DNA of 64,000 bases. Origin: Lentisphaeraceae bacterium. Its GTDB lineage: Bacteria; Verrucomicrobiota; Kiritimatiellia; RFP12; DVOR01. Both the position numbers and the translations under genes were made by a program. Below, piece by piece: positions 2,855 through 46,974 of this stretch (its first letter is position 1; every line of letters begins with the position of its first letter). Under the pieces are notes generated by a model that saw nothing but the letters and a program-made list of their open reading frames with translations, was not told where the DNA came from and did no database searches. The stretch covers positions 32,333-96,332 of the forward strand of contig SFJE01000002.1 in NCBI GenBank assembly GCA_004555175.1. Direction: 5' to 3'.

Positions 2855-3685
2855 TCAGTTCACCAACTTCTGGGCCACCCGTTGACCCTTGGTCGGAAAG
2901 ATTCCCAACAACGCCTGCTCGGCCACCTGGCGCGTATCCTCCGGGAAGTCCCCGCGCGTCATCCACTTCAAGTATGCGTGCCCCTCATGCGGATCGTTGG
3001 CCAAATCGCGCAACTTCGTCCCCTTCTTCTTCCCAAAGTTCACGCACACCTCGCCATTCATCCACCGCCAACGCCCCTGGCGATCGACATTCAGCGGATC
3101 CTGCGGATTGAACATCCGGTCCAACGCATCCACGCTCCGTGGCAAATCCGGATAGCGCGCCAGCTGCCCCACCAACACCTCCAGCGTGGCCTGCGCATCC
3201 GCTAAGGCCCCATGCGCATCAGCCCCCAAATCGCGATTGCAATAGAACTTCAAGGCCGCCGTCAGGTCGCGCGGCTCACGCTTGTGGTAGATCTTCTGGG
3301 CATCAACAATCGCGCGCCCATCGGGATGGAAGTCGCGAATACCGCAGCGCAGGAACTCCTCGTTGAGGATCTGCGCATCGAAATAGCCCACCGAGAAGCC
3401 TCCCAGGTCGCACCCCTCAAAGAAGGTAAAGATCTCGAAGGCCTTCTCGGCAAAGGTCGGGCAACTGGCCACCTCTGCGTCTGTGATCCCGTGAATAGCA
3501 ATCGATTCCACCGGAATCTTCACCGTGGGATTAAGCAACCAAACCCGGTCATCGCGCGTTCCATCCGGATTCAACCGCAATGCCGCCAACTCAATAATCC
3601 GATCTGCCCGCGGACTAATCCCCGTCGACTCAATATCAAAGACAATCAACGGCCGCCGCAACACTATGGGAAAGTCAAACTTCAT
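2855..3685 (-). CDS. DnaQ-like 3'-5' exonuclease (DEDDh) with C-terminal extension
   Basis: Exo I motif FDIESTG and Exo III motif HGALADA. The ATG lies 7 nt downstream of an extended -10 box, which suggests a leaderless transcript. Confidence 0.8.
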   Translation of the reverse strand: MKFDFPIVLRRPLIVFDIESTGISPRADRIIELAALRLNPDGTRDDRVWLLNPTVKIPVESIAIHGITDAEVASCPTFAEKAFEIFTFFEGCDLGGFSVGYFDAQILNEEFLRCGIRDFHPDGRAIVDAQKIYHKREPRDLTAALKFYCNRDLGADAHGALADAQATLEVLVGQLARYPDLPRSVDALDRMFNPQDPLNVDRQGRWRWMNGEVCVNFGKKKGTKLRDLANDPHEGHAYLKWMTRGDFPEDTRQVAEQALLGIFPTKGQRVAQKLVN

Positions 3686-3692
3686 ACCTCAT

Positions 3693-3707
3693 AGTATAGC
3701 ACATCCC
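3693..3707 (-). promoter_or_regulatory. extended -10 promoter GGATGTGCTATACT, 7 nt upstream of the exonuclease ATG (leaderless-type)
   Basis: Minus-strand sequence GGGATGTGCTATACT-atgaggt-ATG. The same box recurs at 11449, 18448 and 47189. Confidence 0.5.
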
Positions 3708-3977
3708 AGCCCGGCGCGTGAGCCGCTTACCGAAAGGCCACTCCTCCTCCTGCTTTCTGCAGTTCTGTGGCGCGACATATTGGCCGCGCAGCGAGCGCCT
3801 GCCCCAAAGCTCCCGGCCGCTCCAATGGCCGCGCTTTCGCTACTCCTCCGCCGCGGAAATAAGCCGCGATCGGGGCGGGCGCAAATGGGAGCCGCCCGAT
3901 GTTGGGTTGCCCCCGCCGCCCTTTCACGGCCCACAAGGCCCCTCACGCGAGCGACAGCGCACACCTCCGCAGAAAAA

Positions 3978-4172
3978 TGCAGAAGGAAAGGAACGGCGGC
4001 GCGGATTATCACGCGGCGCGGAGAGAACTAACCGCTCGGCGAAGCGCAACTAATAAGGCCCCGTCTTATTGGCAATAAGACCCCGTCTTATTCGCAACAA
4101 GACCCCGTCTTATTGGCAACAAGGCGGGGCCTTATTTATTCAAGTCGCTCGGGAAGCGAGTTAACCCAGCGC
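3978..4172 (+). repeat. interspersed ~195-bp repeat element copy A, with 4 nested AAGACCCCGTCTT-type palindromic units
   Basis: About 97% identical to 30701..30895 in the same orientation. Contains 3 CCCC-type units and 1 GGGG-type unit. Confidence 0.9.
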
Positions 4173-4202
4173 TTCAGATAAGGGTGCAGCGCAAAAAGGG
4201 CT

Positions 4203-4230
4203 TTGCTTTTGGGGTTTGGTTTGCTACAAT
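4203..4230 (+). promoter_or_regulatory. sigma70-like promoter of metK (TTGCTT-N16-TGcTACAAT)
   Basis: -35 TTGCTT at 4203-4208, a 16-nt spacer, and extended -10 TGcTACAAT at 4222-4230. This predicts a 5' UTR of about 165 nt. Confidence 0.5.
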
Positions 4231-4400
4231 GTGCGGCACGTTTGCGTTGATTTGGAAAGCGCTCCGGCTTGCGGACGCAGACGTCTTGGAACTGCACGCT
4301 AAAATGGAGGCACCGGGAGTTTCCCCATGGCGGCGGCAGGACGTGCGAGTGCACGGTCTGTCGTTTTCTTTTGGGGGCTTTGCGGTCCTGAAAGGACACT

Positions 4401-5585
4401 ATGAGCAAGTTGTTGACACGGCACATTTACACCTCGGAATCGGTTTCGGAGGGGCATCCTGACAAGGTGGCCGACGCCATCTCGGACGCGATTTTGGATG
4501 CGTGCCTGGCCTTGGATGATCGCGCGCATGTGGCGTGCGAGACGGCCTGCGGGAAGAATCTGGTGGTGAACCTGGGCGAGATTACTTGCCGGGGCTTTGA
4601 GACGCTGAACACGAAGGCGATTGCCCAGGAGATCATCCGGCGCGTGGGCTATGACAATCCGGCCGAGGGTTTCTGCTGGCAAGACTTTACCTATATCAAT
4701 AACCTGCACACGCAGTCGCCGGACATTAACCAGGGGGTGAGCCGGGCCGACCCGGAGGAGCAGGGCGCAGGCGACCAGGGGATGATGTATGGCTACGCCA
4801 CCAACGAGACACCCGAGTTTCTGCCCCTGCCGGTGGTCTGCTCGCACCGTATCCTTGCGCGCCTGGCCGAACTGCGCCACAGCGGGGCAATTGAGTGGCT
4901 GCGGCCGGACTCCAAGGCGCAGGTCTCGGTGCTCTACGAGGGCGGAAAACCCCAGGAGATTACCTCGGTGGTCTGCTCGCACCAGACGCGGGAAGTGAGC
5001 GAAGAGACCATCCACGCAGGGTTGGAAGCGGTCATCCGCGAGGTGCTCGCACCCACGGGGCTGCTGACGAACCGGACGGCCTTCCACCTAAACCCCACCG
5101 GGCGCTTTGTGATTGGCGGTCCGGCCGGAGACGCAGGAGTGACCGGGCGCAAGATTATCGTGGATACCTACGGCGGCGTGGGCTCGCACGGCGGTGGAGC
5201 CTTTTCGGGGAAGGATCCCTCGAAGGTCGATCGCTCGGCGGCCTACTACGCGCGCTACGCGGCCAAGCAGATTGTCGCGGCGGGGTTGGCCGAGAAGTGC
5301 GAGATTCAGGTGGCCTACGCCATTGGGCTGGCCAAGCCGATGAGCATCAATGTTTCCACCTACGGCACCGGGAAGGTGAGCGAGGAGGCGCTGGCGCAGT
5401 TGCTCCTTTCGGGCGAACTCTTCGACTTCCGCCCCGCCGCACTCATTCGCGACCTAGATCTCACCCACCCCAAGGGCTGGTCCTACTCCGAAAACTGCAC
5501 CTACGGTCACTTCGGCCGCACCATGGTGCCCTGGGAACGCCTCGACCGCGTGGAGGCGCTGCGCGAGGCGTTTGCTACCCGCTAG
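4401..5585 (+). CDS. metK: S-adenosylmethionine synthetase
   Basis: Hallmark SESVSEGHPDK N-terminus and a GGGAFSGKD P-loop; full length at 394 aa. Confidence 0.95.
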   Translation: MSKLLTRHIYTSESVSEGHPDKVADAISDAILDACLALDDRAHVACETACGKNLVVNLGEITCRGFETLNTKAIAQEIIRRVGYDNPAEGFCWQDFTYINNLHTQSPDINQGVSRADPEEQGAGDQGMMYGYATNETPEFLPLPVVCSHRILARLAELRHSGAIEWLRPDSKAQVSVLYEGGKPQEITSVVCSHQTREVSEETIHAGLEAVIREVLAPTGLLTNRTAFHLNPTGRFVIGGPAGDAGVTGRKIIVDTYGGVGSHGGGAFSGKDPSKVDRSAAYYARYAAKQIVAAGLAEKCEIQVAYAIGLAKPMSINVSTYGTGKVSEEALAQLLLSGELFDFRPAALIRDLDLTHPKGWSYSENCTYGHFGRTMVPWERLDRVEALREAFATR

Positions 5586-5606
5586 TGCGGGCAGATAAGA
5601 GATGAA

Positions 5607-5660
5607 AGATGACAGCGGCCTGTCCGTTGAAGGACACGCCCTGTCATCTATTTCTATCAT
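5607..5660 (+). terminator. probable intrinsic terminator after metK
   Basis: Imperfect long hairpin (agatgacagcggcctgtcc ... ggacacgccctgtcatct) followed by a T-rich tract. Confidence 0.5.
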
Positions 5661-5740
5661 CTCCCCTCTATTTTTCTGCAAAGGTCTAACTTTTCTGCTA
5701 TAATGCGGGGCGTTGTATCACCGTTTTGATGGAGAGAGAC

Positions 5741-6001
5741 ATGAGCGCAACAGTGACCGTTGAAATCTGTATGGGCACCACCTGTTATGTGATGGGCAGT
5801 GCTCAATTAGCCGGTATTGCCGAACGCCTGCCGGAAGAGTGGAAGAGCTGCGTGACCGTGAAGGGAATGCGTTGCACTGGCGCTTGCCAGAAGGCTGAGC
5901 AGTTCGGGCGCGCCCCCTTTGTGCGGGTGAATGGCGAGATTATCGCCGAGGCGGACGAGGGGAAGATCCTCTCGGCCATTCGTGCGGCTCTTGAGCAGTA
6001 A
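5741..6001 (+). CDS. thioredoxin-like [2Fe-2S] ferredoxin (NuoE/HndA-like small subunit)
   Basis: Cys pattern CMGTTC ... CTGAC. GGAGAG RBS 5 nt upstream of the ATG at 5741. A TGcTATAAT promoter box lies at 5696-5704. Confidence 0.7.
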   Translation: MSATVTVEICMGTTCYVMGSAQLAGIAERLPEEWKSCVTVKGMRCTGACQKAEQFGRAPFVRVNGEIIAEADEGKILSAIRAALEQ

Positions 6002-6029
6002 TTGAACGCGGACAAAGAGAGGAAGTGTT

Positions 6030-7472
6030 ATGGCTATCCCGATGATTAGCGAAGCCGACCGCCTGCGGCGCGAGGTGCTGGCCTATGTGATTAAGGCTGT
6101 CAAGGCCGGAACCTATGGCGACATTGACCGGATCCCGATTAAGATGCGCCCGAAGGGGCAGCCCTTCTCGCGTTGCTGCATCTATAAGGACCGCGCAGCC
6201 CTGCGTTATCGTTGCATGTCCGCCCTCGGCTTCCGCGTGGAAGATGAAACCGATGAGCTTAAGACGCTCCAATCCTACGCCGAGGACCTAAAGGATAATC
6301 CGCCGGCCGCCGACCCCTTCCTGACCATCTTCCCGGACGCCTGCTCGGCGTGTATGGAATCGCAGATTATGGTCACGAATATGTGCCGCGGCTGCTTGGC
6401 CCGCCCCTGCACCAATATCTGCCCGCGCAAGGCCATTCAAGTGCGCAACGGCCGCGCGCGCATCTCCCACGAGCTGTGCATCAACTGCGGCAAGTGCGCC
6501 GAGGTCTGCCGCTACCACGCCATCATCCAGGTCCCGCTCGCCTGCGCCGATGCCTGCCCCGTGGGCGCCATTGGTAAGACCGATGACGGCCGCGTAACCG
6601 TCGACCACGAAAAGTGCATCCGCTGCGGCAAGTGCATCAAGGCCTGCCCCTTCGCGGCCATTATGCAGAGTAACCAGGTGGCCCATGTGGTCCGCGCCAT
6701 CGCCGAGGGCAAGAAGGTCATCGCCCTGGTCGCCCCCGCCATCAATGGCTTCTTCCCAACCGAGCCCGGCAAGCTCTACACCGCCCTGCGCCAAGTCGGT
6801 TTCTCGGCGGTCTACGAAGTGGCCCGCGGCGGCGATGACACCGCCATTGCCGAGGCGGCCGAGTGGGCCGAACGCAAGGCCGAGGGCGCGCCCTTTATGA
6901 CCACCAGCTGCTGCCCGGCGTGGATTGAGTGCGTGGAGCGTCATATCCCCGAGCTCAAGCCCTACGTCTCCTCCACCCCCACGCCGATGGCCTACACCGA
7001 TAAGCGCGCGAAGGCTGACCATCCGGACGCGGTGACCGTCTTCATCGGCCCGTGCATGGCCAAGCGTACCGAAGCCCACAAGCACGGCTCGCCCGACTAT
7101 GTCATCACCGCCGAGGAGATTGGCGCCTGGTTGATGGCCGAGAACATTCAGCTTGACGACCTGGAAGCCAGCGAGCCCGAGCTCTCCGGCACCCAGTATG
7201 GCGCCGAGTTCGCCATCAGCGGCGGCGTGGCCAACGCTGTGGCCCACTATCTGCCCGAAGGCGTCCCCACCCCGACGGTCTTCAAGATCAACGGCCTCAA
7301 CAAGAAGAACATCGCCCTCCTGCGCGTCTTCGCCAAGACCAAGAAGGCCCCGGCGGAGATTATCGAAGTGATGGTCTGCCCAGGTGGCTGCGTGGCCGGC
7401 CCCTGCGCCATCAACACCCCCGAAGACGCAGCCAAGCTCATCCAGTCTCGCCGCCCTGAAGGCTTCAAGTAA
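6030..7472 (+). CDS. hydA: [FeFe]-hydrogenase catalytic subunit (two F-cluster ferredoxin domains plus H-cluster domain)
   Basis: H-cluster motifs TSCCPAW, GPCMAKRTE (PCxxKxxE) and EVMVCPGGCVAGPC (ExMxCxxGCxxG). Two CxxCxxCxxxCP ferredoxin motifs. An uncharacterized N-terminal extension of about 100 aa. At 480 aa it resembles a large subunit that lacks the C-terminal tail. Confidence 0.8.
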   Translation: MAIPMISEADRLRREVLAYVIKAVKAGTYGDIDRIPIKMRPKGQPFSRCCIYKDRAALRYRCMSALGFRVEDETDELKTLQSYAEDLKDNPPAADPFLTIFPDACSACMESQIMVTNMCRGCLARPCTNICPRKAIQVRNGRARISHELCINCGKCAEVCRYHAIIQVPLACADACPVGAIGKTDDGRVTVDHEKCIRCGKCIKACPFAAIMQSNQVAHVVRAIAEGKKVIALVAPAINGFFPTEPGKLYTALRQVGFSAVYEVARGGDDTAIAEAAEWAERKAEGAPFMTTSCCPAWIECVERHIPELKPYVSSTPTPMAYTDKRAKADHPDAVTVFIGPCMAKRTEAHKHGSPDYVITAEEIGAWLMAENIQLDDLEASEPELSGTQYGAEFAISGGVANAVAHYLPEGVPTPTVFKINGLNKKNIALLRVFAKTKKAPAEIIEVMVCPGGCVAGPCAINTPEDAAKLIQSRRPEGFK

Positions 7473-7473
7473 G

Positions 7474-8820
7474 ATGGCTGGCGATATCGCCTGCATCGGC
7501 GCCGGGTACATCGGCGGCCCCACAATGGCCGTCATTGCCAAGATGTGCCCCGAGCGCCAGGTGTGGGTGGTAGATTGCGACGAAGCAAAGATTGCCGCCT
7601 GGAACTCCGAGGAACTCCCGGTCTACGAGCCGGGCTTGAAGGAAGTTGTGCTCGCCTGCCGCGGGCGCAACCTCTTCTTCTCCACAGACATTGCCGGGGC
7701 CATTCGGCGTTGCGACCTTATCTTCGTGGGCGTGAACACGCCAACCAAGACCTTCGGCGAAGGGGCGGGCTACGCCTCGGACCTGCAGTTCTGGGAGGCG
7801 GCCGCGCGCACCATCGCCGCCGAGGCCAATGGCGACAAGGTGGTCATCGAGAAGTCGACCCTGCCTGTGCGCACGGCCGACGCGATGGCCGCCGTCCTGC
7901 ACACCCACCCGGAACACACCTTCACCGTCCTCTCCAACCCCGAGTTTCTGGCCGAGGGGTCGGCCATTGAGGACCTCCTTCACCCCGACCGCGTGCTCAT
8001 CGGCGGACCCGAAACGCCCGCTGGCCGGGCCGCCGTGGCCGCGCTGACGGAGGTCTATGCCGCGTGGGTCCCGCGCGAGCGCATCCTCACCACGAATGTG
8101 TGGTCGAGCGAACTCTCCAAGTTGGCCGCCAATGCGATGCTCGCCCAGCGCATCTCCTCAATCAACGCCTTCTCGGCCCTTTGCGAGGTGACCGGGGCAG
8201 ACGTTGACGAAGTGGCCAACGTGTTGGGGATGGACCGCCGGATTGGGCCGCACTTCCTCAAGGCCGGCCCCGGCTTCGGCGGCTCGTGCTTCAAGAAGGA
8301 TGTCCTGAGCCTGGTCTACCTCTGCCGCCAGTTCGGCCTCACCGAGTGCGCGGACTACTGGGAAGGAGTCATCCGGATGAACGAGCGCCAGCAGCGGCGC
8401 ATCGTCGAGCGCACGGTCCACGCCCTCTTCAACACCCTCTCGGGCAAGCGCCTGGCCCTCTTCGGCTTCGCCTTCAAGGCCAACACCGGCGACACGCGCG
8501 AGACCCCGGCCTTGGCCATCGCCCGCCGCCTCCTCGAAGAGCGCGCCCAGCTCGTCATCACCGACCCCCGCGCCCTCCCCAACGCGCGGCGGGACCTCGC
8601 GGGCGAGGCGGTCGACTTCTGTGAAGACCCCTACCGCGCGGCTGAGGGGGCCGATGCCATCCTGATCTTGACCGAGTGGGCCGAGTATCGCGCGTTGGAC
8701 TGGGCGCGCATCTACCGCGCCATGCGCAAGCCCGCTCTTCTCTTCGACACGCGTAACCTCTTCGACCAGGCCGCCCTCAAAGCCCTTGGCTTCCGCGTCC
8801 TGGCCGTAGGCAAGCCCTAA
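7474..8820 (+). CDS. ugd: UDP-glucose 6-dehydrogenase
   Basis: GAGYIGG Rossmann motif and catalytic GGSCFKKD. The ATG is 1 nt after the hydA stop. Confidence 0.9.
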   Translation: MAGDIACIGAGYIGGPTMAVIAKMCPERQVWVVDCDEAKIAAWNSEELPVYEPGLKEVVLACRGRNLFFSTDIAGAIRRCDLIFVGVNTPTKTFGEGAGYASDLQFWEAAARTIAAEANGDKVVIEKSTLPVRTADAMAAVLHTHPEHTFTVLSNPEFLAEGSAIEDLLHPDRVLIGGPETPAGRAAVAALTEVYAAWVPRERILTTNVWSSELSKLAANAMLAQRISSINAFSALCEVTGADVDEVANVLGMDRRIGPHFLKAGPGFGGSCFKKDVLSLVYLCRQFGLTECADYWEGVIRMNERQQRRIVERTVHALFNTLSGKRLALFGFAFKANTGDTRETPALAIARRLLEERAQLVITDPRALPNARRDLAGEAVDFCEDPYRAAEGADAILILTEWAEYRALDWARIYRAMRKPALLFDTRNLFDQAALKALGFRVLAVGKP

Positions 8821-8832
8821 GGGATTCCGCCA

Positions 8833-9279
8833 ATGACCTCCTCTGACCCCGCAGCCGAGGCCGCCGCGCTCTTTACCGGCGGCTATTCTTGTGCCCAAGC
8901 GGTCCTCGCCGCGTGCGGACCGGCCTTGGGGCTCGACCGCGCCACGGCCCTACGCCTGGCCAGCGGCCTCGGGGCCGGTCTGGGCGGTCTGCGCGAAACC
9001 TGCGGGGCCGTGACGGCGATGGCCGCGGTGCTCGGTCTGCGCCACGGCACCACCGAGCCAATGGATGCCAAGACAAAGGCCGCCCTATACAAGGAGGTCC
9101 AGGCCGCGATTGCCGACTTCGAGGCCACCTTTGCCACGCACAACTGCCGCGAGCTCCTGCGCCGGGCCTCCATCGAGAAGCAAGCCGGCGTGGCCCCGGA
9201 GGAGCGCTCGGCGGCCTACTACGCCAAGCGCCCGTGCGAAGCCTTTGTCCGCTTCTGCGCCCAACGCGCCCTCCAATAG
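8833..9279 (+). CDS. C_GCAxxG_C_C family putative redox-active protein
   Basis: Conserved SCAQAVLAAC and TCGAVT Cys motifs typical of the family. Confidence 0.65.
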   Translation: MTSSDPAAEAAALFTGGYSCAQAVLAACGPALGLDRATALRLASGLGAGLGGLRETCGAVTAMAAVLGLRHGTTEPMDAKTKAALYKEVQAAIADFEATFATHNCRELLRRASIEKQAGVAPEERSAAYYAKRPCEAFVRFCAQRALQ

Positions 9280-9285
9280 CCATCT

Positions 9286-9798
9286 ATGCCGCGCGCGCTA
9301 GAACTCTGCCTGGTGCTCATGACCCTGCCGCTCTGGGGCGCGGCCATTCTCCTCATCGCGCTGGTGCTGGCCTTCGACCGGCCTATCTTCTTCCGCCAAG
9401 CGCGCCCCGGCCTCTACGGCCGCCCCTTCACCCTTATCAAGTTCCGCACGATGCGCCCGGGCCCCGAGGCCGACGCCGAGCGCCTGACGCGCCTCGGCCG
9501 CTTCCTCCGCGCCACCTCGCTCGATGAACTCCCCGAACTGCTCAACGTCCTGCGCGGCGAGATGGCCCTCGTCGGCCCCCGCCCGCTCCTGATGGCCTAT
9601 CTGGCCGAATACACGCCCGCCGAGCACCACCGCCACGATGTCCGCCCCGGCATCACCGGCTGGGCGCAGGTCCACGGCCGCAACGCCATCACCCGCGCCG
9701 ACAAGGTCCGCTACGACCTCGACTACATCGCCCGCCGCTCCACGGCCTTCGACTTCTACATCCTCTTCCTCACCATCTTTCACCTGCGGGGAAACTAA
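9286..9798 (+). CDS. small bacterial sugar transferase (PglC/WbaP C-terminal-domain type polyprenyl-phosphate glycosyl-1-phosphate transferase)
   Basis: N-terminal membrane helix and conserved KFRTM and DELPQL-like blocks of the bacterial sugar transferase family. 170 aa. Confidence 0.8.
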   Translation: MPRALELCLVLMTLPLWGAAILLIALVLAFDRPIFFRQARPGLYGRPFTLIKFRTMRPGPEADAERLTRLGRFLRATSLDELPELLNVLRGEMALVGPRPLLMAYLAEYTPAEHHRHDVRPGITGWAQVHGRNAITRADKVRYDLDYIARRSTAFDFYILFLTIFHLRGN

Positions 9799-10691
9799 TG
9801 CGCCACCTCTACGCTCTCCTCCTCACGCTCTGCTTCGCCCTGGCCGCCCCGCTCCGCGCCCAGCCCAATCCCTTCGAGGCCTCGGTGGAGACCGTGCGCG
9901 AAAACCGCGTCCCCTTGCGCATCCACCCGGCCAACAACCTCCAGACCCTTCAGGCCACGCTCAACGGCAAGCCCTGCACCCTCCTCTTCGATACGGGTGC
10001 CTCGCACACCACCTTCAACGATGCCTTCATTAAAGCCGCCTTTCCAGACCTCCCCCGCCAGCCGCTTATTCTGCCAGGCCAAACCAACGTCCGCCAGCGG
10101 CCCGACCTCATTCCCGTTGCCTCCCTCTCGCTCGGCAACACCACTCTGCGCGACTTCTACGCGATGGTCCTCCCCCTCGACCACCTCTCGCGCGCGGTCG
10201 GCACCCCCATCGACGGCATCCTCGGCGCTAACTCCATCGCCTACGCCCCCTGCCTCATCTCCCTGCGCCAAGCGGCCGTCACCTGGGCCCCTTCCGCCAA
10301 CGCGCTCCCGGCGAACTTCGCCGCCGCCCCCGAGCTCCCCCTCGCCCCCGAGTGCGCGCCCCTCGCGCCCATCACCCTCCTGGCCCGCCGCACCCCTGAG
10401 GGCGCCCCCTGCCCCCTTTTGCTCGACACCGGCTCCTCCTACACCTTCCTGCCCACCTCCTTCTGGCCCGCTGCCGAGGAGACCCTCGCCCTCGCCGCCA
10501 CCAACGTCAACGCCTCCAACCAGAAGCGCTACCGGCGCGGCCAGCCCGGTTCGCTCCTCCTCGGCGAGTGTTCGCTCCCCATCACCCCGCTCTTAACCGA
10601 CCAGAACCACCACCAAATCGGTGCCGACCTCCTGGCAAACTACGACCTTTTCGTCGACTTCCGCCGCCGTCTCCTCAAGGTGCTCCCATGA
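9798..10691 (+). CDS. secreted retropepsin-like (clan AA) aspartic protease with two tandem DTG domains
   Basis: Signal peptide; LLFDTGASHTTF and LLLDTGSSYTFL catalytic motifs about 145 aa apart. TAATG overlap with the upstream gene. Confidence 0.7.
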   Translation: MRHLYALLLTLCFALAAPLRAQPNPFEASVETVRENRVPLRIHPANNLQTLQATLNGKPCTLLFDTGASHTTFNDAFIKAAFPDLPRQPLILPGQTNVRQRPDLIPVASLSLGNTTLRDFYAMVLPLDHLSRAVGTPIDGILGANSIAYAPCLISLRQAAVTWAPSANALPANFAAAPELPLAPECAPLAPITLLARRTPEGAPCPLLLDTGSSYTFLPTSFWPAAEETLALAATNVNASNQKRYRRGQPGSLLLGECSLPITPLLTDQNHHQIGADLLANYDLFVDFRRRLLKVLP

Positions 10692-11374
10692 CCCCTGCCA
10701 CCCGCGCCCTCGTCCTCCCCTTTGCCCTCTGGATCGGTGGCATCGTTCTCCTCCTCTTCCCGCATAGCTACGACGCGCCGGCCTACCTCTACGCCGCCAA
10801 GACCCTCCTCTGCGCCCTCGCTCTCCTCGTGCTCAAGCCCTGGCGCTATGCCCCCTGCGCCAAACAGCGCGGTGACCTCGCCCTCGGCCTCCTCGTTGGC
10901 CTAGCCGTCTACGCCCTCTGGGCCCTCCCCGAAAGCACCCCGTGGCCTGCCGTGACCGCCTGGTACCGCCGCTGGCTCGTAATGCTCCCCGGCGCACTCC
11001 CCGATTATAGCGCCTCCTGGTGCTACGCCTACCCAAGTCACCCCCTTCTCGCCCTGGTCAAACTGGTCGGCTCGGCCTTCGTCATCGCCCCCATCGAAGA
11101 GTTCTTCTTCCGCGGCTGGTTGATGCGCTCGCTCACCCAGCGCGACTGGCAGGAGCTGCCCCTGGGCAAGGTCTCCACCGCCGCCTTCTGGGCCACCGTG
11201 GCGGTCTTCGCCTTCGAGCACGACCGCTTCCTCGGTGGCGCCCTTGCCGGTCTGACCTACGGCGCCCTCGCCCGCAACACCAATTCCCTGCGTGCCCCCA
11301 TCATCGCCCACGTCACCACCAACCTCCTCCTCGGTCTCCAAGTCCTCCTCGCCGGCCACTACCACTTCTGGTAA
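10688..11374 (+). CDS. CPBP family (CAAX/Abi) intramembrane metalloprotease
   Basis: EEFFFRGWL (EExxxR), FAFEHDRF (FxxxH) and HVTTN motifs; multiple TM helices. ATGA overlap with the upstream gene. Confidence 0.8.
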   Translation: MTPATRALVLPFALWIGGIVLLLFPHSYDAPAYLYAAKTLLCALALLVLKPWRYAPCAKQRGDLALGLLVGLAVYALWALPESTPWPAVTAWYRRWLVMLPGALPDYSASWCYAYPSHPLLALVKLVGSAFVIAPIEEFFFRGWLMRSLTQRDWQELPLGKVSTAAFWATVAVFAFEHDRFLGGALAGLTYGALARNTNSLRAPIIAHVTTNLLLGLQVLLAGHYHFW

Positions 11375-11448
11375 TCCGCGCTCCCTGCCCGCGACGAAGC
11401 AATCTCCCCGTTATGCATTTAGGGGCAAGTGAGTGCGGGAGCGGGTTA

Positions 11449-11462
11449 GGATGTGGTATACT
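11449..11462 (+). promoter_or_regulatory. extended -10 promoter GGATGTGGTATACT, 7 nt upstream of the ATG (leaderless-type)
   Basis: Sequence ATGTGGTATACTGCGC is identical to 18451-18466 upstream of smc. The ATG is at 11470. Confidence 0.5.
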
Positions 11463-11469
11463 GCGCGAT

Positions 11470-14400
11470 ATGTCGAAAGCTAAGCGAGCGAACTTCTTGG
11501 AGAAGGTCGACCGGCTTGCCTTATGGGTGAGCGGGTTGACGGCCTTTGCGGTCTATCTCCTCTCGCTAGGGCCTTCAATTGGCATGGAGGATGCGGGGGA
11601 GTTGGCAACGGCAGCTGACGTGCTGGGGGTTCCGCATCCGCCAGGGTATCCGCTCTGGACGATGCTCTCGTGGCTCTTTTGCCGGGCCTTTGGGTGGGTG
11701 ACATGGCAGGGGTGGCCGAATCCGGGTTGGGCAGTGGCATTGGCGTCGGCGGTGGCGGGAGCGGCAGCAGTGGGGGTGCTGGCGGCAGTGATTTCGCGCT
11801 CGCTGAAGGCGCCGTTGGGGGCGTTAGAAGGGGGAGAGACGGTACGCGGAATTACGGGAATCGGGGCGGCATTGGCCTTTGCCTTCTCACCGGGGATGTG
11901 GTCGCAGTCAGTGATTGTGGAGGTGTATGCACTGGGAGCACTCTTTTTTTCGCTAGTGATGCTCTTGGCGCTAGATTGGCTCGTGCAGCGGCGTGGTTGG
12001 ACCTTGGTGTGGTTGGGGTTAGTCTTTGGGTTGGGGCTGACGAACTATCAGGTGTTGCTCTTGGCGGCGGTGCCATTGGGAGCGATGGTAGCGATTCGGC
12101 GGTGGCGTCTAGCGCGAAGTTTTCTCGCGGTGGCGATTCCGTTGGGGCTGACGATTTACCTGTTGCAACTGGGCGCGATGGAGAGCGCGGATGCACTTTC
12201 GACGCCAGGAGCACCAGTGATTTTGCGGCCGGAGGCGGCCGTTGAGGTGCGTTATCCCGGGGCACTGGCGCCGGAGGCGGCCGTTGAGGTGCGTTATCCC
12301 GGGGCACTGGCGCCGGTGTGGCTCTATGGCGCGTTGGCGGGGTTGGTGCTGGGGATGGCCGGCGTGGCGTGGGCGCGGCCGCGAGGGCGGTGGTGGGCGT
12401 TAGGTACCTTGGCCGGAGCACTTGGCGCGCTCTTGGCCTTCTCGGCGTGGCGCTTTGCAACGCGGGAGGTGCCCGAGGGTTTTGCGGGAACGCTCTACGG
12501 CTTTGGTCGGGCATGGGTTGTGCACGCAGTGGCATTGGGGGGGCTCTGGGCGCTCTGTTGGCGGTGGCGGCGGGCGCGACGCTTTGCCTTTGTGGTGAGT
12601 GTAGGGCAGATGGGGGCGTTGGGGTTGATGGCGCAGGGGCTGATGATGGGGCTAACGCACCCCACAACGGGGTGGTTCTGGTGGCCAATTGTGTGGAATG
12701 GAGTGGTGTTGGCGCTGGCGTGGCGGCTCTTGCCGGGCGGAAAGTGGGTGGCCGGGACGATTGGGGCAGCCGAGGCCGGGCTCGCGGTCTATGGCTATAT
12801 GCCGCTGGCTTCCGACGCGCTAAATCCGGGGATGAATTGGGGGTATGCGCGGACGTGGGAGGGCTTTAAGCACGCGGTCTCGCGCGGACAGTATGAAGCA
12901 ATTTCGCCGGCAAGCATCTGCTCGGTGGCCTATCTCCGGCAGCTGTGGGTCTATCTGGGGGACCTGCGGATGCAGTTTATGGGGCTAGGGATGACGTTGG
13001 GGGCGGCCGGGCTGGTGAGCGCGCTGGGCGTGGCGCGGCGGCGGGTGCAGGGTTATCGGGGAATGCGGCTGTGGCCGTGGGTGACGGTGGGGCTCTTTGT
13101 GATGATGTCGGCGGTGTTGGTGGCATTGGCGAATCCGACGGGGGACATCCAAGATGGCTTTATTCAGAAGGTGAAGTTCATTACCTCGCACCAGCTCTTC
13201 GCGGTGTGGATTGGCTACGGTCTGGCTTTGGCGGCGGTGGGGCTAGCCAAGTGGCGCGGGACCCGCGCGGCGGCGATTGGAGCAGGCGTGCTGGCTGCAG
13301 CCGTCGCGTTGGGGCCGATGGTGGAGAACTTCCGCGACCGCGAGTTGGTTCGGCGCGTTGGGGCCGCCGAGCAGACGGGGCACGACTTTGGGTGGCAGTT
13401 TGGGGCCTACATGATGGGCGGGGCCGAGCAGATCTTGGCCGAGGTGCGCGCAGATGAAGAGCCGCTCCCGGATCCCTTCTGGCCGCCGCCGATGAGTCCG
13501 GGGGCAGTCTACTTTGGCGGGACAGATGCCGGGCGCTTTGTGCCCACCTACCTGGCCTATGCCGTTGGCTTCCGGCCCGATGTCTGTGTGCTCACGCAGA
13601 ATGCCTTGGCCGACCCCACCTATATGAATGTGGAGCGAGACCTCTATGGCGAGCAGCTCTGGCTCCCGACCGCCGATGAGGTCCGGACGGCCTTTACCGA
13701 TTACACCAATGCGGTCCTGGCTGGAAAGCGCACGTCGCGCGGGAAGATTACCGAGGTCAATGGGCGCGTACAGATTAGCGGCTCGGCGGCCGTGATGGAA
13801 ATTTGCGAGGAGCTGGCCCGGCAGATTTGGGAACGGAACCCTGAGCGGGACTTTTATCTAGAGGAGAGCTACCGGATGCCGTGGATGGATGCGGTGCTCG
13901 AGCCCGCGGGGCTGGCGATGCGCCTGCGGCGCGAGGTGGAGGGGCGCGACCTAGCGGCCGACCGCGCGCGGAATGATGACTTTTGGGATTGGATGGTGCG
14001 CCGGCTCATCACGCGCGCGGCTTATGGGCGGGACTTTGCCGCGCAGAAGAGCTTCTCAAAGTTGCGCTCCTCGCAGGCAGGGATTTATGCGCGCAACGGC
14101 CAGGCTGAGGCGGCCGAACGGGCCTTTGGCGAGGCGATGGCACTCTTCCCCATTTCGCCCGATGCCCTCTTCCGTTACCTGCAAGAGTCGCTCCTGCCCC
14201 AGGGGCGCTTTGAGGTGGCTGGGCGAATGTTGCGGCAGTATCTGCGCGTGGATCGCGGCAATACGCGAGCCTATGCGGCCCTAACGCGCGTGGAGGAACT
14301 AGGGAAGGCCGATGCCACCTTTCGCGCCCTGACCCAAAAGGTGCGCGATCAGCAGGCCACGACCGCCGACATCTGCAATTTGGCCCGCACGGCCGAGGCG

Positions 14401-14859
14401 CTTGACCGCCACGAGATTGCCGCCGCCTACTGGGAGCAGGTGGTCTCGGCCGCCGATTTAACCGCTGGGGACGCGCGCGACGGGTGCATTGCCCTGCAGC
14501 GCCTGCGCAAGAACGAGTCGGCAATGGCCCTTCTGCGACGCGTGCCAGAGGCCGTTTGGCCGACCCTTTCGGGGGCGGAGCTGGTGGCCTCATCTGGCTT
14601 GGCCCAGACCTTTGGAGAGCGACAGTTGGCGCTCGCCCTCCTGCAATGTGCCGTAAAGGCCGAGCCACAATCTGGCCGCGTGTGGCTGGGGATTGCCCTT
14701 TTCTATTATGGCGTCGGGGACGAAGCCCGGGCCTACGAGTACATGCGCACGGCAGTGCGCTTTGGAGCCTCCTCGCTCATTGAGGCAGATGAGGCCGTAG
14801 CAGAGGTCTTCTTGCACCTAGTGCGTCGCTACGGTCCACAGAAAGGAGTCGCGCAATGA
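11470..14859 (+). CDS. DUF2723/TMEM260-like GT-C family membrane glycosyltransferase (putative protein O-mannosyltransferase-like) with C-terminal TPR repeats
   Basis: N-terminal block GELATAADVLGVPHPPGYPLW matches the TMEM260/DUF2723 signature (GVAHPPGYPLF). Many TM helices and a C-terminal TPR-like region. Start chosen at MSKAKRAN; the ORF is open back to 11020. Confidence 0.7.
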   Translation: MSKAKRANFLEKVDRLALWVSGLTAFAVYLLSLGPSIGMEDAGELATAADVLGVPHPPGYPLWTMLSWLFCRAFGWVTWQGWPNPGWAVALASAVAGAAAVGVLAAVISRSLKAPLGALEGGETVRGITGIGAALAFAFSPGMWSQSVIVEVYALGALFFSLVMLLALDWLVQRRGWTLVWLGLVFGLGLTNYQVLLLAAVPLGAMVAIRRWRLARSFLAVAIPLGLTIYLLQLGAMESADALSTPGAPVILRPEAAVEVRYPGALAPEAAVEVRYPGALAPVWLYGALAGLVLGMAGVAWARPRGRWWALGTLAGALGALLAFSAWRFATREVPEGFAGTLYGFGRAWVVHAVALGGLWALCWRWRRARRFAFVVSVGQMGALGLMAQGLMMGLTHPTTGWFWWPIVWNGVVLALAWRLLPGGKWVAGTIGAAEAGLAVYGYMPLASDALNPGMNWGYARTWEGFKHAVSRGQYEAISPASICSVAYLRQLWVYLGDLRMQFMGLGMTLGAAGLVSALGVARRRVQGYRGMRLWPWVTVGLFVMMSAVLVALANPTGDIQDGFIQKVKFITSHQLFAVWIGYGLALAAVGLAKWRGTRAAAIGAGVLAAAVALGPMVENFRDRELVRRVGAAEQTGHDFGWQFGAYMMGGAEQILAEVRADEEPLPDPFWPPPMSPGAVYFGGTDAGRFVPTYLAYAVGFRPDVCVLTQNALADPTYMNVERDLYGEQLWLPTADEVRTAFTDYTNAVLAGKRTSRGKITEVNGRVQISGSAAVMEICEELARQIWERNPERDFYLEESYRMPWMDAVLEPAGLAMRLRREVEGRDLAADRARNDDFWDWMVRRLITRAAYGRDFAAQKSFSKLRSSQAGIYARNGQAEAAERAFGEAMALFPISPDALFRYLQESLLPQGRFEVAGRMLRQYLRVDRGNTRAYAALTRVEELGKADATFRALTQKVRDQQATTADICNLARTAEALDRHEIAAAYWEQVVSAADLTAGDARDGCIALQRLRKNESAMALLRRVPEAVWPTLSGAELVASSGLAQTFGERQLALALLQCAVKAEPQSGRVWLGIALFYYGVGDEARAYEYMRTAVRFGASSLIEADEAVAEVFLHLVRRYGPQKGVAQ
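12229..12312 (+). repeat. exact 42-bp x2 in-frame tandem duplication (PEAAVEVRYPGALA x2) inside the DUF2723 gene
   Basis: Positions 12229-12270 are identical to 12271-12312. Confidence 0.95.
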
Positions 14860-15869
14860 TACGCGTTGTCTTTATGGGATCGGCGGACCTCTCCGCAACG
14901 ATGCTGGAACGGTTGGTGCAGGAGCAGGAGCACCTGCAGGTGGTCGGTTGCGTCACACAGCCCGACAAGCCCGCCGGACGCAGTAAGCGGCTAACGCCGT
15001 GTGCCTGCAAGGCCTTTGTGACCCAAGCGGGAATTCCCTGCCTAACACCCGACCGGGTCAATACCCCCGAGAGCCTGGCGCAGATTGCCGCCTGGTTGCC
15101 GGATGTCATTGTGGTGGTGGCCTATGGGCAGTTCCTCAGCAAGCGACTGTTGGATATCCCAACGATGGGTTGCATCAACATCCACCTCTCGCTCCTGCCG
15201 CGCTACCGCGGGGCTTCGCCCATTCACGCCGCCCTCCTAGCCGGCGACCGCGAGACCGGTGCCACCGCGATGTTGATGGATGAGGGGATGGATTCAGGCC
15301 CCATCCTGATGACGGCCAAGACCCCCATTCGCGATGACGACACACTTGAGACCCTCCACGACCGTCTGGCCGACCTGGGCGCAGACCTCCTGATCCGCGT
15401 TCTGCCCCTCTGGGCCTTCTTCAAGGTCAAGCCCACCCCGCAAGATCCTAAACTTGTCACCACTGCTTACAAGATCCGTAAGAGCGATGGTTTGCTCCAT
15501 TGGACTGACCCGACCGACTTCAACCTCCGCAAGCTGCGCGCCTACACCCCCTGGCCCTCCTGCTTCACCTATATGCCCGAGGATCATAAGGAGCACGGCA
15601 AGATGCTCAAGATTCTCACCGCGCACGCCGAGCCCATCGACCTCAACCGCGAGAAGGTCGCCCCGGGCACCATCCTGGAGGTCGACAAGCGCGGTATTTT
15701 GGTGCGCACGGCAGATGGCGCGCTACGCCTAACTCGGGTTCAATCCGAGGGGGGCAAGCCGATGGAAGCTGCTGCCTGGCTCTGCGGTCACCCCCTGACT
15801 GCCGGCGAAGTCTTCGTGACGCCGCCCGCCCCCGGAGCTAAACAAATTGTCGCCTTCGACCGTAATTAG
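14856..15869 (+). CDS. fmt: methionyl-tRNA formyltransferase
   Basis: Formyltransferase N-domain motifs (HxSLLPxxRG, GxTxM) plus the Fmt C-terminal domain. ATGA overlap with the upstream gene. Confidence 0.9.
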   Translation: MIRVVFMGSADLSATMLERLVQEQEHLQVVGCVTQPDKPAGRSKRLTPCACKAFVTQAGIPCLTPDRVNTPESLAQIAAWLPDVIVVVAYGQFLSKRLLDIPTMGCINIHLSLLPRYRGASPIHAALLAGDRETGATAMLMDEGMDSGPILMTAKTPIRDDDTLETLHDRLADLGADLLIRVLPLWAFFKVKPTPQDPKLVTTAYKIRKSDGLLHWTDPTDFNLRKLRAYTPWPSCFTYMPEDHKEHGKMLKILTAHAEPIDLNREKVAPGTILEVDKRGILVRTADGALRLTRVQSEGGKPMEAAAWLCGHPLTAGEVFVTPPAPGAKQIVAFDRN

Positions 15870-15885
15870 AGAATCCAATAACGCT

Positions 15886-17559
15886 ATGACTGACTGCCAA
15901 CGTCCCACTATCGTCATCGGCCACCGCAATCCGGATACCGATTCTATCGTCTCGGCCATCGCCTACGCCGCCCTCAAACGCCAGCAAGGCTACATCAACT
16001 GCACGCCAGCGCGCGCCGGCCGCCTCACCCCGCAGACCGAGTACATCCTCCGCCGCTTCAATGTCGAGCCGCCCACGTTGATGCCTGACCTGCTCCCCAA
16101 GGTGGGTTACTTCCTGCCCGAAGGCAAGCCCGCCACCGTCCCGGAGAACAGCGCCTTGTGGGACGCGTTGGAATTGATGGACCACGGCCGCCTCCCGGCC
16201 ATTCCCGTGGTTGATTGCGAGGGCCGCTACCGCGCCTTCCTCTCGCACAACACCTTCACTGAAAATATCATCCACAAGACTGATCCCCACCGCAAGGCCA
16301 TCATCCCCACCAGCATCAACCTGCTAATCAAGACCTTGCGCGCCCAGCCGCTGCTCACCTTCAATGGCGATGCGGTCATCAAGAGCCGAATCCTCGTGGC
16401 CGGATCGACCAAGGAGGTCTTTGAGCAAGTTCTCAAGACCGAACTGCCCACCAACGCCATCGCCGTGGTCGAGAACCGTTGCTCCATCCTCGAGCTCTGC
16501 ATTCGCTACAAAGTCCGTGCGATTGTGCTTACCGGTGCCCAGCCGCTCCCCAAAGAGATGTTCGAAAAGGCCAACGCCGCCGGTATCTCCGTGCTCATCT
16601 CCCCCTACGACATCGCCAGCACGATCTACCTGACGCTCTACTCGATGCCTGTCAGCGCCATGACCACCGACGACATCCAGGCGGTCAAGGCCGATGACCT
16701 CGTGCGCGATATTCTCCCCGCCGTCCAAGCCTCCCCCACCCGCTCGCTCCCAGTCACGGACGACGAGGGGCACGTCATTGGCACCATCAACGAGCGCGAC
16801 CTCTACAAGCAGCCGAATCTCGACATCATTATGGTTGACCACAACGAGCTCTCCTTGGCCGTTGAGGGAATGGACCAATTCCACATCATCGAGATTATCG
16901 ACCACCACAAGCTCGGTAACTTCCCCACACACGAGCCTATCAACTTCATTAACCGCGTCGTCGGCTCCACCGCCACCATCGTCTCCTGCCTCTACCAAGA
17001 GCAGAAGGCCACCCTCACCCCCGCCATCGCCGGCCTCCTCCTCTCGGCCATCATCACCGACACCCTCGCGCTCCAATCGCCCACCACCACCGATGTCGAC
17101 CGCAACATGGCCGAGTACCTCTCTGGCCTCCTCAACCTTGAAGTCTCCGCCTTAGCCCACGACATCTTCTCGCACGCTTCCAAGCTCAACGACCTCTCAA
17201 TCGAGAAGATCCTCTCGATGGACACCAAGGCCTACGAGGAGGACGGTGTCACCTTCACCGTCTCGCAGATTGAAACCGGCACCTCCAACGAGCTCGGCGG
17301 CCGCGTGCCCGAACTTCTCGACGCCCTCGCCGCCCGCTGCAAGAACGAAAGGCACTTCTTCGCCGCGCTGATGGTCACCGACATTACCGCCCTCAACTCG
17401 GTCCTCCTCGTGGCGGGCGACCCGCGCTTCATCGCCAAGATCCCCTTCCCGAAGACCGGCAAGGATAATGTCTTCCTCTGCAAGGGCATTATGTCGCGCA
17501 AAAAGCAGCTTCTGCCCCTCCTTCTTGAACAGCTCAAAGCTACCCTCGGAGTTCGCTGA
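15886..17559 (+). CDS. ppaC: CBS-domain-containing family II (Mn-dependent) inorganic pyrophosphatase
   Basis: DHH motif (HRNPDTDS, MVDHN, DHH), an inserted CBS pair, and a DHHA2 C-terminus. Confidence 0.8.
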   Translation: MTDCQRPTIVIGHRNPDTDSIVSAIAYAALKRQQGYINCTPARAGRLTPQTEYILRRFNVEPPTLMPDLLPKVGYFLPEGKPATVPENSALWDALELMDHGRLPAIPVVDCEGRYRAFLSHNTFTENIIHKTDPHRKAIIPTSINLLIKTLRAQPLLTFNGDAVIKSRILVAGSTKEVFEQVLKTELPTNAIAVVENRCSILELCIRYKVRAIVLTGAQPLPKEMFEKANAAGISVLISPYDIASTIYLTLYSMPVSAMTTDDIQAVKADDLVRDILPAVQASPTRSLPVTDDEGHVIGTINERDLYKQPNLDIIMVDHNELSLAVEGMDQFHIIEIIDHHKLGNFPTHEPINFINRVVGSTATIVSCLYQEQKATLTPAIAGLLLSAIITDTLALQSPTTTDVDRNMAEYLSGLLNLEVSALAHDIFSHASKLNDLSIEKILSMDTKAYEEDGVTFTVSQIETGTSNELGGRVPELLDALAARCKNERHFFAALMVTDITALNSVLLVAGDPRFIAKIPFPKTGKDNVFLCKGIMSRKKQLLPLLLEQLKATLGVR

Positions 17560-18419
17560 TGGAGCTCTTCATCGCCGAGCCGCACGGAATGTGCACCGGG
17601 GTGGCGCGTGCCTTGCGCATCGTCCGGCGCACGCTCGAAGAGCACCCCGGTGAGCCGCTCTGGTGCTTCCACGAGATTGTCCACAACGAGCATGTGGTCT
17701 CCAACCTGCGTGCTCAGGGGGTTCGGTTTGTCAATGATTTGGCCGATGTTCCCCCCGGCTCGCGCCTCCTCTTCTCCGCGCACGGCGTGAGCCCAGCCGT
17801 TCGCGCCCAGGCGGCCGAACGCAATCTGGAGGTGGTCGACGCCACCTGCCCCTTCGTAGCCAAAGTCCATGCAGAAGCCAAGGTCTTCGCCTCCCAAGCT
17901 CTCCCCATCGCCCTCGTGGGCCACAAAGGGCACGACGAAGTGGTCGGCATCCTCGGCGAAGCGCCCACCGCCATCCGCGTCATTGAAACCGCAGCCGATG
18001 TTGCCGCCCTCCGCCAGGAGCTCCCCGCTGTGCGCGACCTCGCCCTCCTCAGTCAGACCACCGTCAGTGGCGAGATGTTCACCGAGCGACTCGCCAACCT
18101 CCGTGCCGCCGGCTTCACTCCCCGCCTCCCCAACCATCGCGACATCTGCTACGCCACCCAAGAACGCCAGGATGCCGTCCGCGAGCTCGCCGGCCGCGTC
18201 GACCGCCTCCTCGTGCTCGGCTCGCGCACCTCTTCCAACTCCAAGCGCCTAGCCGAAGTTGCACAAACGGCCGGCTGCCCCGCCACGCTCATTGCCTCGC
18301 CTGACGAGCTTGACACCCTCGACCTCTCCGGCGTTGAGCGCCTCGGCCTCACCTCCGGCGCCTCCACCCCCGAAGAACTCCTCACTGAAGTTGCCCACCG
18401 CCTCTCCCAGCACGCCTAA
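17559..18419 (+). CDS. ispH: 4-hydroxy-3-methylbut-2-enyl diphosphate reductase
   Basis: LytB family. Conserved Cys (MCTGV, ATCPFV, ICYAT) and SSNS motif. Confidence 0.9.
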   Translation: MELFIAEPHGMCTGVARALRIVRRTLEEHPGEPLWCFHEIVHNEHVVSNLRAQGVRFVNDLADVPPGSRLLFSAHGVSPAVRAQAAERNLEVVDATCPFVAKVHAEAKVFASQALPIALVGHKGHDEVVGILGEAPTAIRVIETAADVAALRQELPAVRDLALLSQTTVSGEMFTERLANLRAAGFTPRLPNHRDICYATQERQDAVRELAGRVDRLLVLGSRTSSNSKRLAEVAQTAGCPATLIASPDELDTLDLSGVERLGLTSGASTPEELLTEVAHRLSQHA

Positions 18420-18447
18420 GCTCTAGGCCCCCCCGCCTCTGCACGCA

Positions 18448-18462
18448 GGAATGTGGTATACT
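18448..18462 (+). promoter_or_regulatory. extended -10 promoter GGAATGTGGTATACT, 8 nt upstream of the smc ATG (leaderless-type)
   Basis: Shares 16 identical nt with the box at 11451-11466. Confidence 0.5.
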
Positions 18463-18470
18463 GCGCAACG

Positions 18471-29404: not shown

Positions 29405-29495
29405 CGCTGCGGGCCTATCAAGGGAAAAAAGGAGCGGATTGCAAGTGGCGCGGGCCAGGGTGCAATCCGCCATCTATCAGCGCCAAGCGCTGGGC

Positions 29496-46748: not shown

Positions 46749-46974
46749 GCTAGCCGCGTGCGCGTGTGCACGCAAGTCGACAGTGAACAGTCGACAGGAC
46801 GCGGCAAGCCGCGACGGACGGGCTCTCGTTAGAAGTATTGAGCTTCATCGTTTCAGACTTTCGCTTGTTCGTCGCGTTAGCGCACGGCGACTCGACTGTC
46901 GACTATTCACTCTCCTCTGTCGGCCGGGCGCAACCTCCCCCATGCCGGGCGAAAACCTCCTCCCGGGGCGGGAG

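Follow-up and report, generated by a model that had tools for sequence, protein, structure and literature searches.

In a stretch of 64,000 nucleotides of contig SFJE01000002.1 from a Lentisphaeraceae bacterium (positions 32,333 to 96,332; hereafter the window), three genes on the forward strand occupy positions 9286-11374. The first (9286-9798, +) encodes a predicted PglC-type phosphoglycosyl transferase (PGT) of 170 amino acids (aa), the second (9798-10691, +) a putative secreted or periplasmic two-lobed aspartic protease of 297 aa (AspP), and the third (10688-11374, +) a predicted Rce1-like glutamic intramembrane protease of 228 aa that belongs to family TIGR03008 (CPBP). PGT and CPBP are treated below as the core members of a module and AspP as an optional member. 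The PGT/AspP junction is TAATG, where the TAA stop of PGT and the ATG of AspP (9798) have one base in common, and the AspP/CPBP junction is ATGA, where the ATG of CPBP at 10688 overlaps the TGA stop of AspP. An earlier note on this DNA had reported the coordinates and identities of the trio and both overlaps correctly, and all its family names were confirmed by hidden Markov model (HMM) searches with Pfam and NCBIfam.

Overlaps of 1 or 4 nucleotides (nt) were found in about 10 of the 39 same-strand adjacent gene pairs of the window, including pairs that are functionally unrelated (DUF2723-fmt, a pyrophosphatase gene and its neighbour), and a further 17 same-strand neighbour pairs have gaps of about 20 nt or less or overlaps of other sizes. 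Because such overlaps are the background in this genome, those of the module prove little, and they were rejected as evidence of coupling by themselves. Since a promoter and terminator consensus scan of 3600-18600 gave nothing exceeding shuffled expectation, it is the spacing of the genes that suggests co-transcription from 5726 onward. Gene packing is very tight window-wide, across functionally mixed arrays.

Identity of the three proteins

The PGT matched Bac_transf (PF02397) with 179.8 bits (cutoff 27) as a complete one-domain enzyme, and its residues 7-164 could be aligned to residues 20-181 of Campylobacter PglC (PDB 8g1n) with 134.6 bits. It carries an N-terminal hydrophobic helix with an invariant P15, and an invariant D80-E81 in the motif SLDELPE. 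Domain, helix proline and Asp-Glu dyad together point to a small monotopic PglC-like phosphoglycosyl transferase. The single domain, the membrane helix with its conserved proline and the dyad are shared with PglC of Campylobacter (8g1n, 8e37), while the window PGT is shorter (170 aa as against approximately 190-205 aa), has a 17-residue C-terminal deletion and lies outside any N-glycosylation or bacillosamine cluster. PGTs of the module type form their own subclade of 170-172 aa, at least 65% identical to the window PGT, and the next relatives outside the module have 188-210 aa and at most 64% identity. The segment that module PGTs lack (GIxxxGEATMxEF, around residue 165) is a conserved feature of their closest PglC-like relatives. 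Of the PGTs outside the module, the nearest (61% identical) neighbours PglD-like and DegT-like genes, a bacillosamine-type setting as for pglC, and these neighbours are the sole hint to the sugar that the PGT may transfer.

AspP matched the retropepsin-like family PF13650 with 65.2 bits (cutoff 24.3) and begins with a signal-peptide-like helix. One catalytic motif could be assigned to each lobe, D65-T66-G67 and D210-x-G212, and both are invariant in 18 homologs. The AlphaFold2 model (pLDDT 88, pTM 0.84) has a two-lobed pepsin-like fold. Its best Foldseek match in the PDB is 9iy9, a putative endopeptidase of Bacteroides fragilis (E 3.5e-13), followed by pepsins, renins, Candida Saps and tethered HIV protease dimers; the Foldseek probability is 1.00 towards pepsins, renins and 9iy9. 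Domain, motifs and predicted fold agree with a clan AA single-chain two-lobed aspartic peptidase. Bacterial two-lobed aspartic peptidases (9iy9) and eukaryotic pepsins (A1) share with AspP the two lobes, a D-T/S-G in each and the pepsin-like fold. However, AspP is only 10-17% identical to solved structures, and in sequence it resembles the retropepsin-like PF13650/PF13975 and not PF00026 of the A1 pepsins. A profile search of 1.84 billion representatives returned 87 clusters at E<=1e-30 and 653 at E<=1e-10, and these numbers suggest that the bacterial single-chain aspartic peptidases to which AspP would belong form a family of moderate size. Its distant homologs (30-34% identical) are solitary and lie beside coaBC-like and rsgA genes.

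CPBP matched PF02517 with 56.6 bits (gathering score 22.4). Across 16 diverse sequences its motifs EExxxR, FxxxH and HxxxN show no variation at E137, E138, R142, F174, H178, H208 and N212, and the fold is helical and of Rce1 type, Rce1/SpdC-like. The protein is accordingly predicted to be a catalytically intact Rce1-like glutamic intramembrane protease. It passes the NCBIfam model TIGR03008 "pepcterm_CAAX" with 114.7 bits (cutoff 81.05), as did all ten CPBPs tested from the module clade (defined below) and the outgroups (112-147 bits). Members of the module clade scored 112-118 bits versus 121-147 bits for outgroup members, which marks them as a divergent subclade. With TIGR03008 proteins and the CPBP half of exosortase E (TIGR04162) the window protein shares the passed cutoff, the catalytic motifs and the Rce1/SpdC fold, and as in TIGR03008 PEP-CTERM systems, PEP-CTERM proteins occur in genomes of its clade. 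It differs from these systems in that it neither adjoins an exosortase nor is fused to one, is not located in an exopolysaccharide (EPS) locus, and belongs to a subclade whose partner genes are different, namely a small PGT and, in part of the loci, an aspartic protease. Myxosortases (MrtX/C/P/S/J; Haft 2023; mBio 2025) belong to the same protease superfamily and have been proposed to remove C-terminal membrane anchors from surface proteins. The HMM match to them is weak, since CPBP stays under every myxosortase cutoff (NF040914 and relatives; best Mrt_core, 42.9 bits against 100), and their signals hold an invariant Cys, whereas the window ORFs (open reading frames) gave no signal of this kind.

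A PEP-CTERM-associated sugar transferase, a clan AA aspartic protease and a CAAX-type protease had been named in the earlier note as recurring companions of exosortase loci. For CPBP this stood, by its TIGR03008 score; for the other two it did not. The PGT fails TIGR03013 (EpsB_2, XrtA/PEP-CTERM sugar transferase) with 140.6 bits against a cutoff of 393.35, and it matches only positions 263-433, the catalytic C-terminal part of proteins of approximately 440 aa, the N-terminal half being absent. AspP reached 17 bits on TIGR02281 (clan AA 'DTGA' proteases; cutoff 57.95) and fits none of the exosortase-linked families. The word 'aspartic' appears zero times both in Haft 2006 and in the Haft 2023 CPBP-sortase preprint, which leaves the aspartic protease unmentioned there as an exosortase companion. 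Exosortase-CPBP fusion proteins, and PF02397 transferases among the PEP-CTERM-correlated families, were described in Haft 2006.

Conservation of the PGT-CPBP pair

For the comparison of neighbourhoods, an alignment of CPBP homologs was scanned against one genome per GTDB species, which gave 80 loci. Five extra loci were reached through AspP, and six-frame ORFs of all loci were searched with the window proteins. The closest loci, with CPBPs 96% and 94% identical to that of the window, belong to metagenome-assembled genomes (MAGs) of Candidatus Spyradenecus (Kiritimatiellia), to which the organism of the window was therefore assigned. The module clade was defined by a CPBP at least 59% identical to that of the window and comprises 26 informative loci; L026, cut by a contig end, stands outside the 26, and L008 and L009 repeat the L007 and window arrangements on second contigs.

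The PGT adjoins CPBP in 23 of the 26 informative clade loci, while the flanks differ. The adjacency described in the earlier note is thus retained in relatives. The order PGT-AspP-CPBP was found in 14 of the 26 loci, including L019 and L013, the latter with an AspP of reduced form (143 bits). In seven the PGT abuts CPBP without AspP, and in two (L027, L028) CPBP stands alone. AspP is present in 16 of the 26. The trio proposed as operonic is thus conserved as an adjacency and not as an obligate trio. In L017 and L018 PGT-AspP lies on the opposite strand, directly downstream of CPBP and convergent with it. The 4-nt overlap of AspP and CPBP is common to L005, L006, L007 and the window. In a neighbour-joining tree of CPBP the trio loci are spread over the whole clade and pairs without AspP occupy at least three distinct positions, so that, most simply, the trio would be ancestral and AspP would have been lost repeatedly, at least three times. 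By sequence comparison the module lineage appears to be Candidatus Spyradenecus with allied gut and rumen Kiritimatiellia, and the PGT-CPBP pair its conserved core.

Two rearranged forms were also observed. In the L018 module (8342-11294), as in L017, the next gene after PGT-AspP encodes a protein of 193 aa that carries two PepSY domains, a kind of domain associated with the regulation of proteases. L019 (6900-9997) carries three tandem AspP paralogs between PGT and CPBP; this was seen in one MAG.

The surroundings of the pair fall into at least six different neighbourhoods. The hydrogenase, ugd and C_GCAxxG_C_C genes that precede the module in the window are upstream of it only in L007-L011, and DUF2723-fmt follows it within the clade only in L009 and L011. 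Elsewhere the module adjoins rpsP-trmD-rplS, arginine decarboxylase, NAD synthase (nadE), gltA/glutamate synthase, an MFS transporter, galactokinase and others. The 'glycosylation cluster' in which the earlier note had placed the trio is consequently a setting kept in near relatives only, and the other loci are flanked by housekeeping genes.

As outgroups served 61 loci with CPBPs 36-48% identical to that of the window, from other Kiritimatiellia, Lentisphaerota, Verrucomicrobiota, Armatimonadota and one Thermodesulfobacteriota. In none of the 61 does a PGT or AspP adjoin CPBP. Instead, a cellulose-synthase-like family 2 glycosyltransferase (GT2) of processive type and a protein of approximately 490 aa with 8 transmembrane (TM) helices precede CPBP in 19 of them, which represent a subclade of the outgroup CPBPs, and a protein of approximately 240 aa with 2 TM helices follows it in 27. 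In L029, the nearest outgroup, a lipoprotein peptidase of the M28 family (9099-10004) overlaps the start of CPBP by 4 nt and takes the slot of AspP. M28 homologs are also found 4-5 kb upstream of the module in L005 (4707-5633) and L024 (4673-5629), which group together in the CPBP tree, and M28 may have taken the place of the companion peptidase by non-orthologous replacement. Two themes recur for this CPBP family in these phyla: linkage to a membrane glycosyltransferase, and linkage to an exchangeable periplasmic peptidase.

The outgroup genes form a four-gene cassette, seen for example in L032 (704-4411): GT2 (4 TM), the protein of approximately 490 aa (8-9 TM), the TIGR03008 CPBP and the 2-TM protein of approximately 240 aa. 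The same cassette is present in L034-L038, L046, L050, L056, L062-L064 and others, from other Kiritimatiellia, Lentisphaerota and Verrucomicrobiota. Its 8-9-TM protein has a conserved C-terminal soluble domain; the family gave no Pfam, NCBIfam or PDB-profile match even at E<=10, and the protein may be either a GT-C-type glycosyltransferase or exosortase-like. The 2-TM protein matched nothing in Pfam or NCBIfam.

Exosortase search and possible function of the module

Neither the 64-kb window nor the 6.5 kb past its left edge yielded an exosortase or a PEP-CTERM protein, and the negative result of the earlier note, which had seen no exosortase, PEP-CTERM protein or Wzy in 64 kb, holds. By Pfam the polytopic ORFs of the window are MatE, FtsW/RodA, GT2 and DUF2723 proteins. 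Among the window genes scanned there was no chain-length determinant, Wzx/Wzy, EpsI or PrsK/R/T companion; a faint PrsT-like TPR match of 19 bits lies inside the DUF2723 protein. The window locus has neither the exosortase gene nor the companion genes of an exosortase EPS locus, and no PEP-CTERM or other tripartite C-terminal sorting signal was detected in the window ORFs by regular expressions and a small HMM. For the other loci, ORFs of at least 230 aa with at least five predicted membrane helices were clustered and a sample was scanned with NCBIfam. These gave MraY, FtsW, MurJ, CydAB, UbiA-family, NagX-like, CstA and similar proteins.

Four canonical PEP-CTERM proteins are encoded 2-7 kb from the module in three clade loci: L018 15347-15919 (-), L019 1417-2223 (-), L023 2324-2857 (+) and L023 12770-13678 (-). 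All match TIGR02595 with 20-25 bits (cutoff 16), and their tails, PEPTALALLALGVAGLALRRR, are near-identical. Four such proteins in 0.43 Mb of clade loci compare with none in 0.84 Mb of outgroup loci. Because canonical PEP-CTERM proteins occur in L018, L019 and L023, a PEP-CTERM system exists in the module clade; so few events do not establish local linkage.

Each of the three genes belongs to a known family, and the conserved PGT-(AspP)-CPBP arrangement was not found in the literature searched. It yielded nothing on TIGR03008 and nothing joining Kiritimatiellia with PEP-CTERM, and a search on phosphoglycosyl transferase with CAAX gave plant prenylation papers only.

We tentatively read the three genes as a lineage-specific envelope module that pairs glycan priming with a TIGR03008 protease and is accessory to a PEP-CTERM/exosortase system encoded elsewhere, an interpretation that is possible though short of probable. 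Between a fragment of a dispersed system and a separate module, the two options left by the earlier note, we are leaning towards a dispersed accessory. The PGT would act at the inner face of the membrane, where it attaches a sugar-1-phosphate to undecaprenyl phosphate, PGT and CPBP would be co-produced and serve the same membrane process, and glycan priming on the polyprenyl carrier would be coupled to intramembrane cleavage by CPBP. The latter may cut a membrane-anchored surface-protein precursor or its leftover anchor, and its likeliest substrates would be PEP-CTERM proteins processed by an exosortase encoded elsewhere.

Where AspP is present, it could supply a first cleavage in the periplasm as an optional step, comparable to that in site-1/site-2 pairs such as PerP/MmpA, known from PodJ proteolysis in Caulobacter and a precedent for an aspartic site-1 protease teamed with an intramembrane protease. 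A periplasmic aspartic protease and an intramembrane protease would be combined in both cases. PerP has only one domain, which is retropepsin-like, and MmpA belongs to the metalloproteases (S2P), whereas the window pair is made up of a two-lobed single-chain protease and a glutamic CPBP.

Several points weigh against the accessory role proposed here. Besides the missing exosortase and PEP-CTERM protein in and beside the window, no exosortase was present among the sampled polytopic ORFs of the 80+ loci, from which several single-locus ORFs were not submitted. The PEP-CTERM proteins near three modules could merely reflect a PEP-CTERM-rich genome. The module lies among housekeeping genes and not in EPS loci, its tight spacing is the norm of this genome, and the organism is represented by MAGs only. 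In addition, myxosortases, which are the CPBP proteases known for sorting, act on signals with an invariant Cys, and PEP-CTERM has no such residue (Haft 2023).

The main rival takes CPBP mainly as a partner or scaffold for polyprenyl-diphosphate-linked glycan chemistry and not as a protein-sorting protease, with the PEP-CTERM link incidental; the product of the PGT, an undecaprenyl-diphosphate-sugar, would be bound by CPBP, or CPBP would serve to position or regulate that enzyme. This accounts directly for the linkage to PGT and GT2, and it has a precedent in the SagB-SpdC complex of S. aureus, in which a CPBP homolog has been proposed to bind the lipid pyrophosphate carrier and scaffold envelope enzymes. 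However, the known roles of SpdC (LyrA) are non-catalytic, whereas the window CPBP keeps its catalytic residues, and its partner is a PGT of the cytoplasmic face and not an extracellular glycosidase. The invariance of the three catalytic motifs in 16 diverse CPBPs argues for retained proteolysis, the family passes TIGR03008, an equivalog model associated with PEP-CTERM, and the repeated coupling of CPBP to a periplasmic peptidase (AspP, or M28 in L029) fits proteolysis better. A role of CPBP as a scaffold is for these reasons considered unlikely.

It is rather improbable that the genes have no shared function and stand together because a compact genome places unrelated genes in same-strand arrays whose order was inherited within one family. 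Overlaps and short gaps are usual also where the genes are unrelated (DUF2723 and fmt, for example), the module is flanked by housekeeping genes, AspP was repeatedly lost and all pair loci belong to one clade. Yet the adjacency of PGT and CPBP persists down to 59-63% CPBP identity although the surroundings are reshuffled, and the inversion in L017/L018 moved PGT-AspP to the other strand and left it beside CPBP. Moreover, the module PGT is a distinct shortened subclade that is found with this CPBP. If the link were inherited gene order only, the finding would be an ordinary operon of known families.

A self-contained, exosortase-independent surface maturation, in which CPBP removes C-terminal anchors and the PGT builds a lipid-linked display glycan, is quite improbable. 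CPBPs have been proposed as sorting enzymes for several C-terminal signals (Haft 2023), the pair is kept where no exosortase was found within 10 kb in the loci examined, and PEP-CTERM proteins are encoded close to three modules. Against this, PEP-CTERM strictly co-occurs with exosortase in published profiles (Haft 2006), which makes an exosortase encoded elsewhere the simpler expectation, and there is no candidate substrate inside the module and no sorting-signal protein in the 64 kb of the window. Still more speculative, and very improbable, is that PGT-CPBP forms an unrecognised surface-display machinery, in which CPBP would hold the undecaprenyl-diphosphate-sugar in a prenyl-binding cavity of the type seen in Rce1 and SpdC, and cleavage of the C-terminal anchor of cargo such as PEP-CTERM proteins would depend on the glycolipid, with no adjacent exosortase. 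Proteolysis could then be coupled to glycan attachment, and AspP or the outgroup M28 could be exchangeable first-cut proteases.

That CPBP is a bacteriocin-immunity or peptide-processing protein ('Abi' role), with AspP maturing a secreted peptide, is scarcely credible: CPBPs often adjoin bacteriocin genes (review text, Haft 2023) and a secreted protease is adjacent, but no small peptide gene, ABC exporter or bacteriocin-like ORF was found in or beside the module at any locus, the PGT linkage would go unexplained, and TIGR03008 is not a bacteriocin-associated CPBP group.

With the accessory envelope module as the preferred reading, the interest of the locus lies in the protease family. TIGR03008 CPBPs were named solely for their co-occurrence with PEP-CTERM, without a known substrate or role, and a clade that ties such a protease firmly to a glycan-priming enzyme offers a concrete lead that can be tested, namely that the family acts on or beside polyprenyl-linked glycan intermediates in the assembly of surface proteins or polymers. 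The lead is strengthened because sister lineages link TIGR03008 CPBPs to a processive GT2 or to another periplasmic peptidase. It bears on the construction of the cell surface in abundant uncultured Kiritimatiellia of gut and rumen.

Surroundings of the module in the window

Upstream of the module, and given here as context only, lie genes for a thioredoxin-like 2Fe-2S protein (5726-6001, +), a monomeric [FeFe] hydrogenase of group B1 (6030-7472, +; TIGR04105, 486.5 bits against a cutoff of 450), UDP-glucose 6-dehydrogenase (ugd; 7474-8820, +), with three UDPG_MGDP_dh domains, and a C_GCAxxG_C_C putative redox protein (8833-9279, +; PF09719, 95.4 bits). The hydrogenase stop (7470-7472) is 1 nt from the ugd ATG (7474), as had been observed before. 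The synteny of 2Fe2S, HydA and ugd is kept in the close relatives L007, L008, L010 and L011. A 2Fe2S-HydA pair (5080-6881) also lies a few kb upstream of CPBP in the outgroup locus L029, with no ugd or PGT there.

Downstream, likewise as context, a gene for a TMEM260-like/DUF2723 polytopic protein of 1129 aa with a C-terminal TPR part (11470-14859, +; PF11028, 97.8 bits, and TPR matches) starts 95 nt past CPBP and overlaps fmt by 4 nt. A similar arrangement was seen in the outgroup locus L047 (CPBP 44% identical), where a TMEM260-like and TPR protein of 1137 aa (11356-14769) is encoded approximately 650 bp downstream of CPBP. This matches the window and is the sole DUF2723-TPR recurrence among the 61 outgroup loci. 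DUF2723 was rejected as a partner of the module, its gene being downstream only in the same species-level group and in the distant L047.

Besides the DUF2723 protein, the window encodes only two large polytopic proteins, a MatE-family transporter (26250-27617) and FtsW/RodA (28286-29473). The ORFs at 34313-37441 (+, 1042 aa) and 44610-46775 (-, 721 aa) have a coding-like GC content at third codon positions and no significant Pfam match even at E<=1. Within the DUF2723/TMEM260-like gene, 42 bp are duplicated in tandem without mismatch at positions 12228-12316 (2.1 copies, 100% match). The resulting in-frame repeat of 14 residues (PEAAVEVRYPGALA) falls in a loop; the duplication seems to be of recent origin, or it may reflect strain variation or the assembly.

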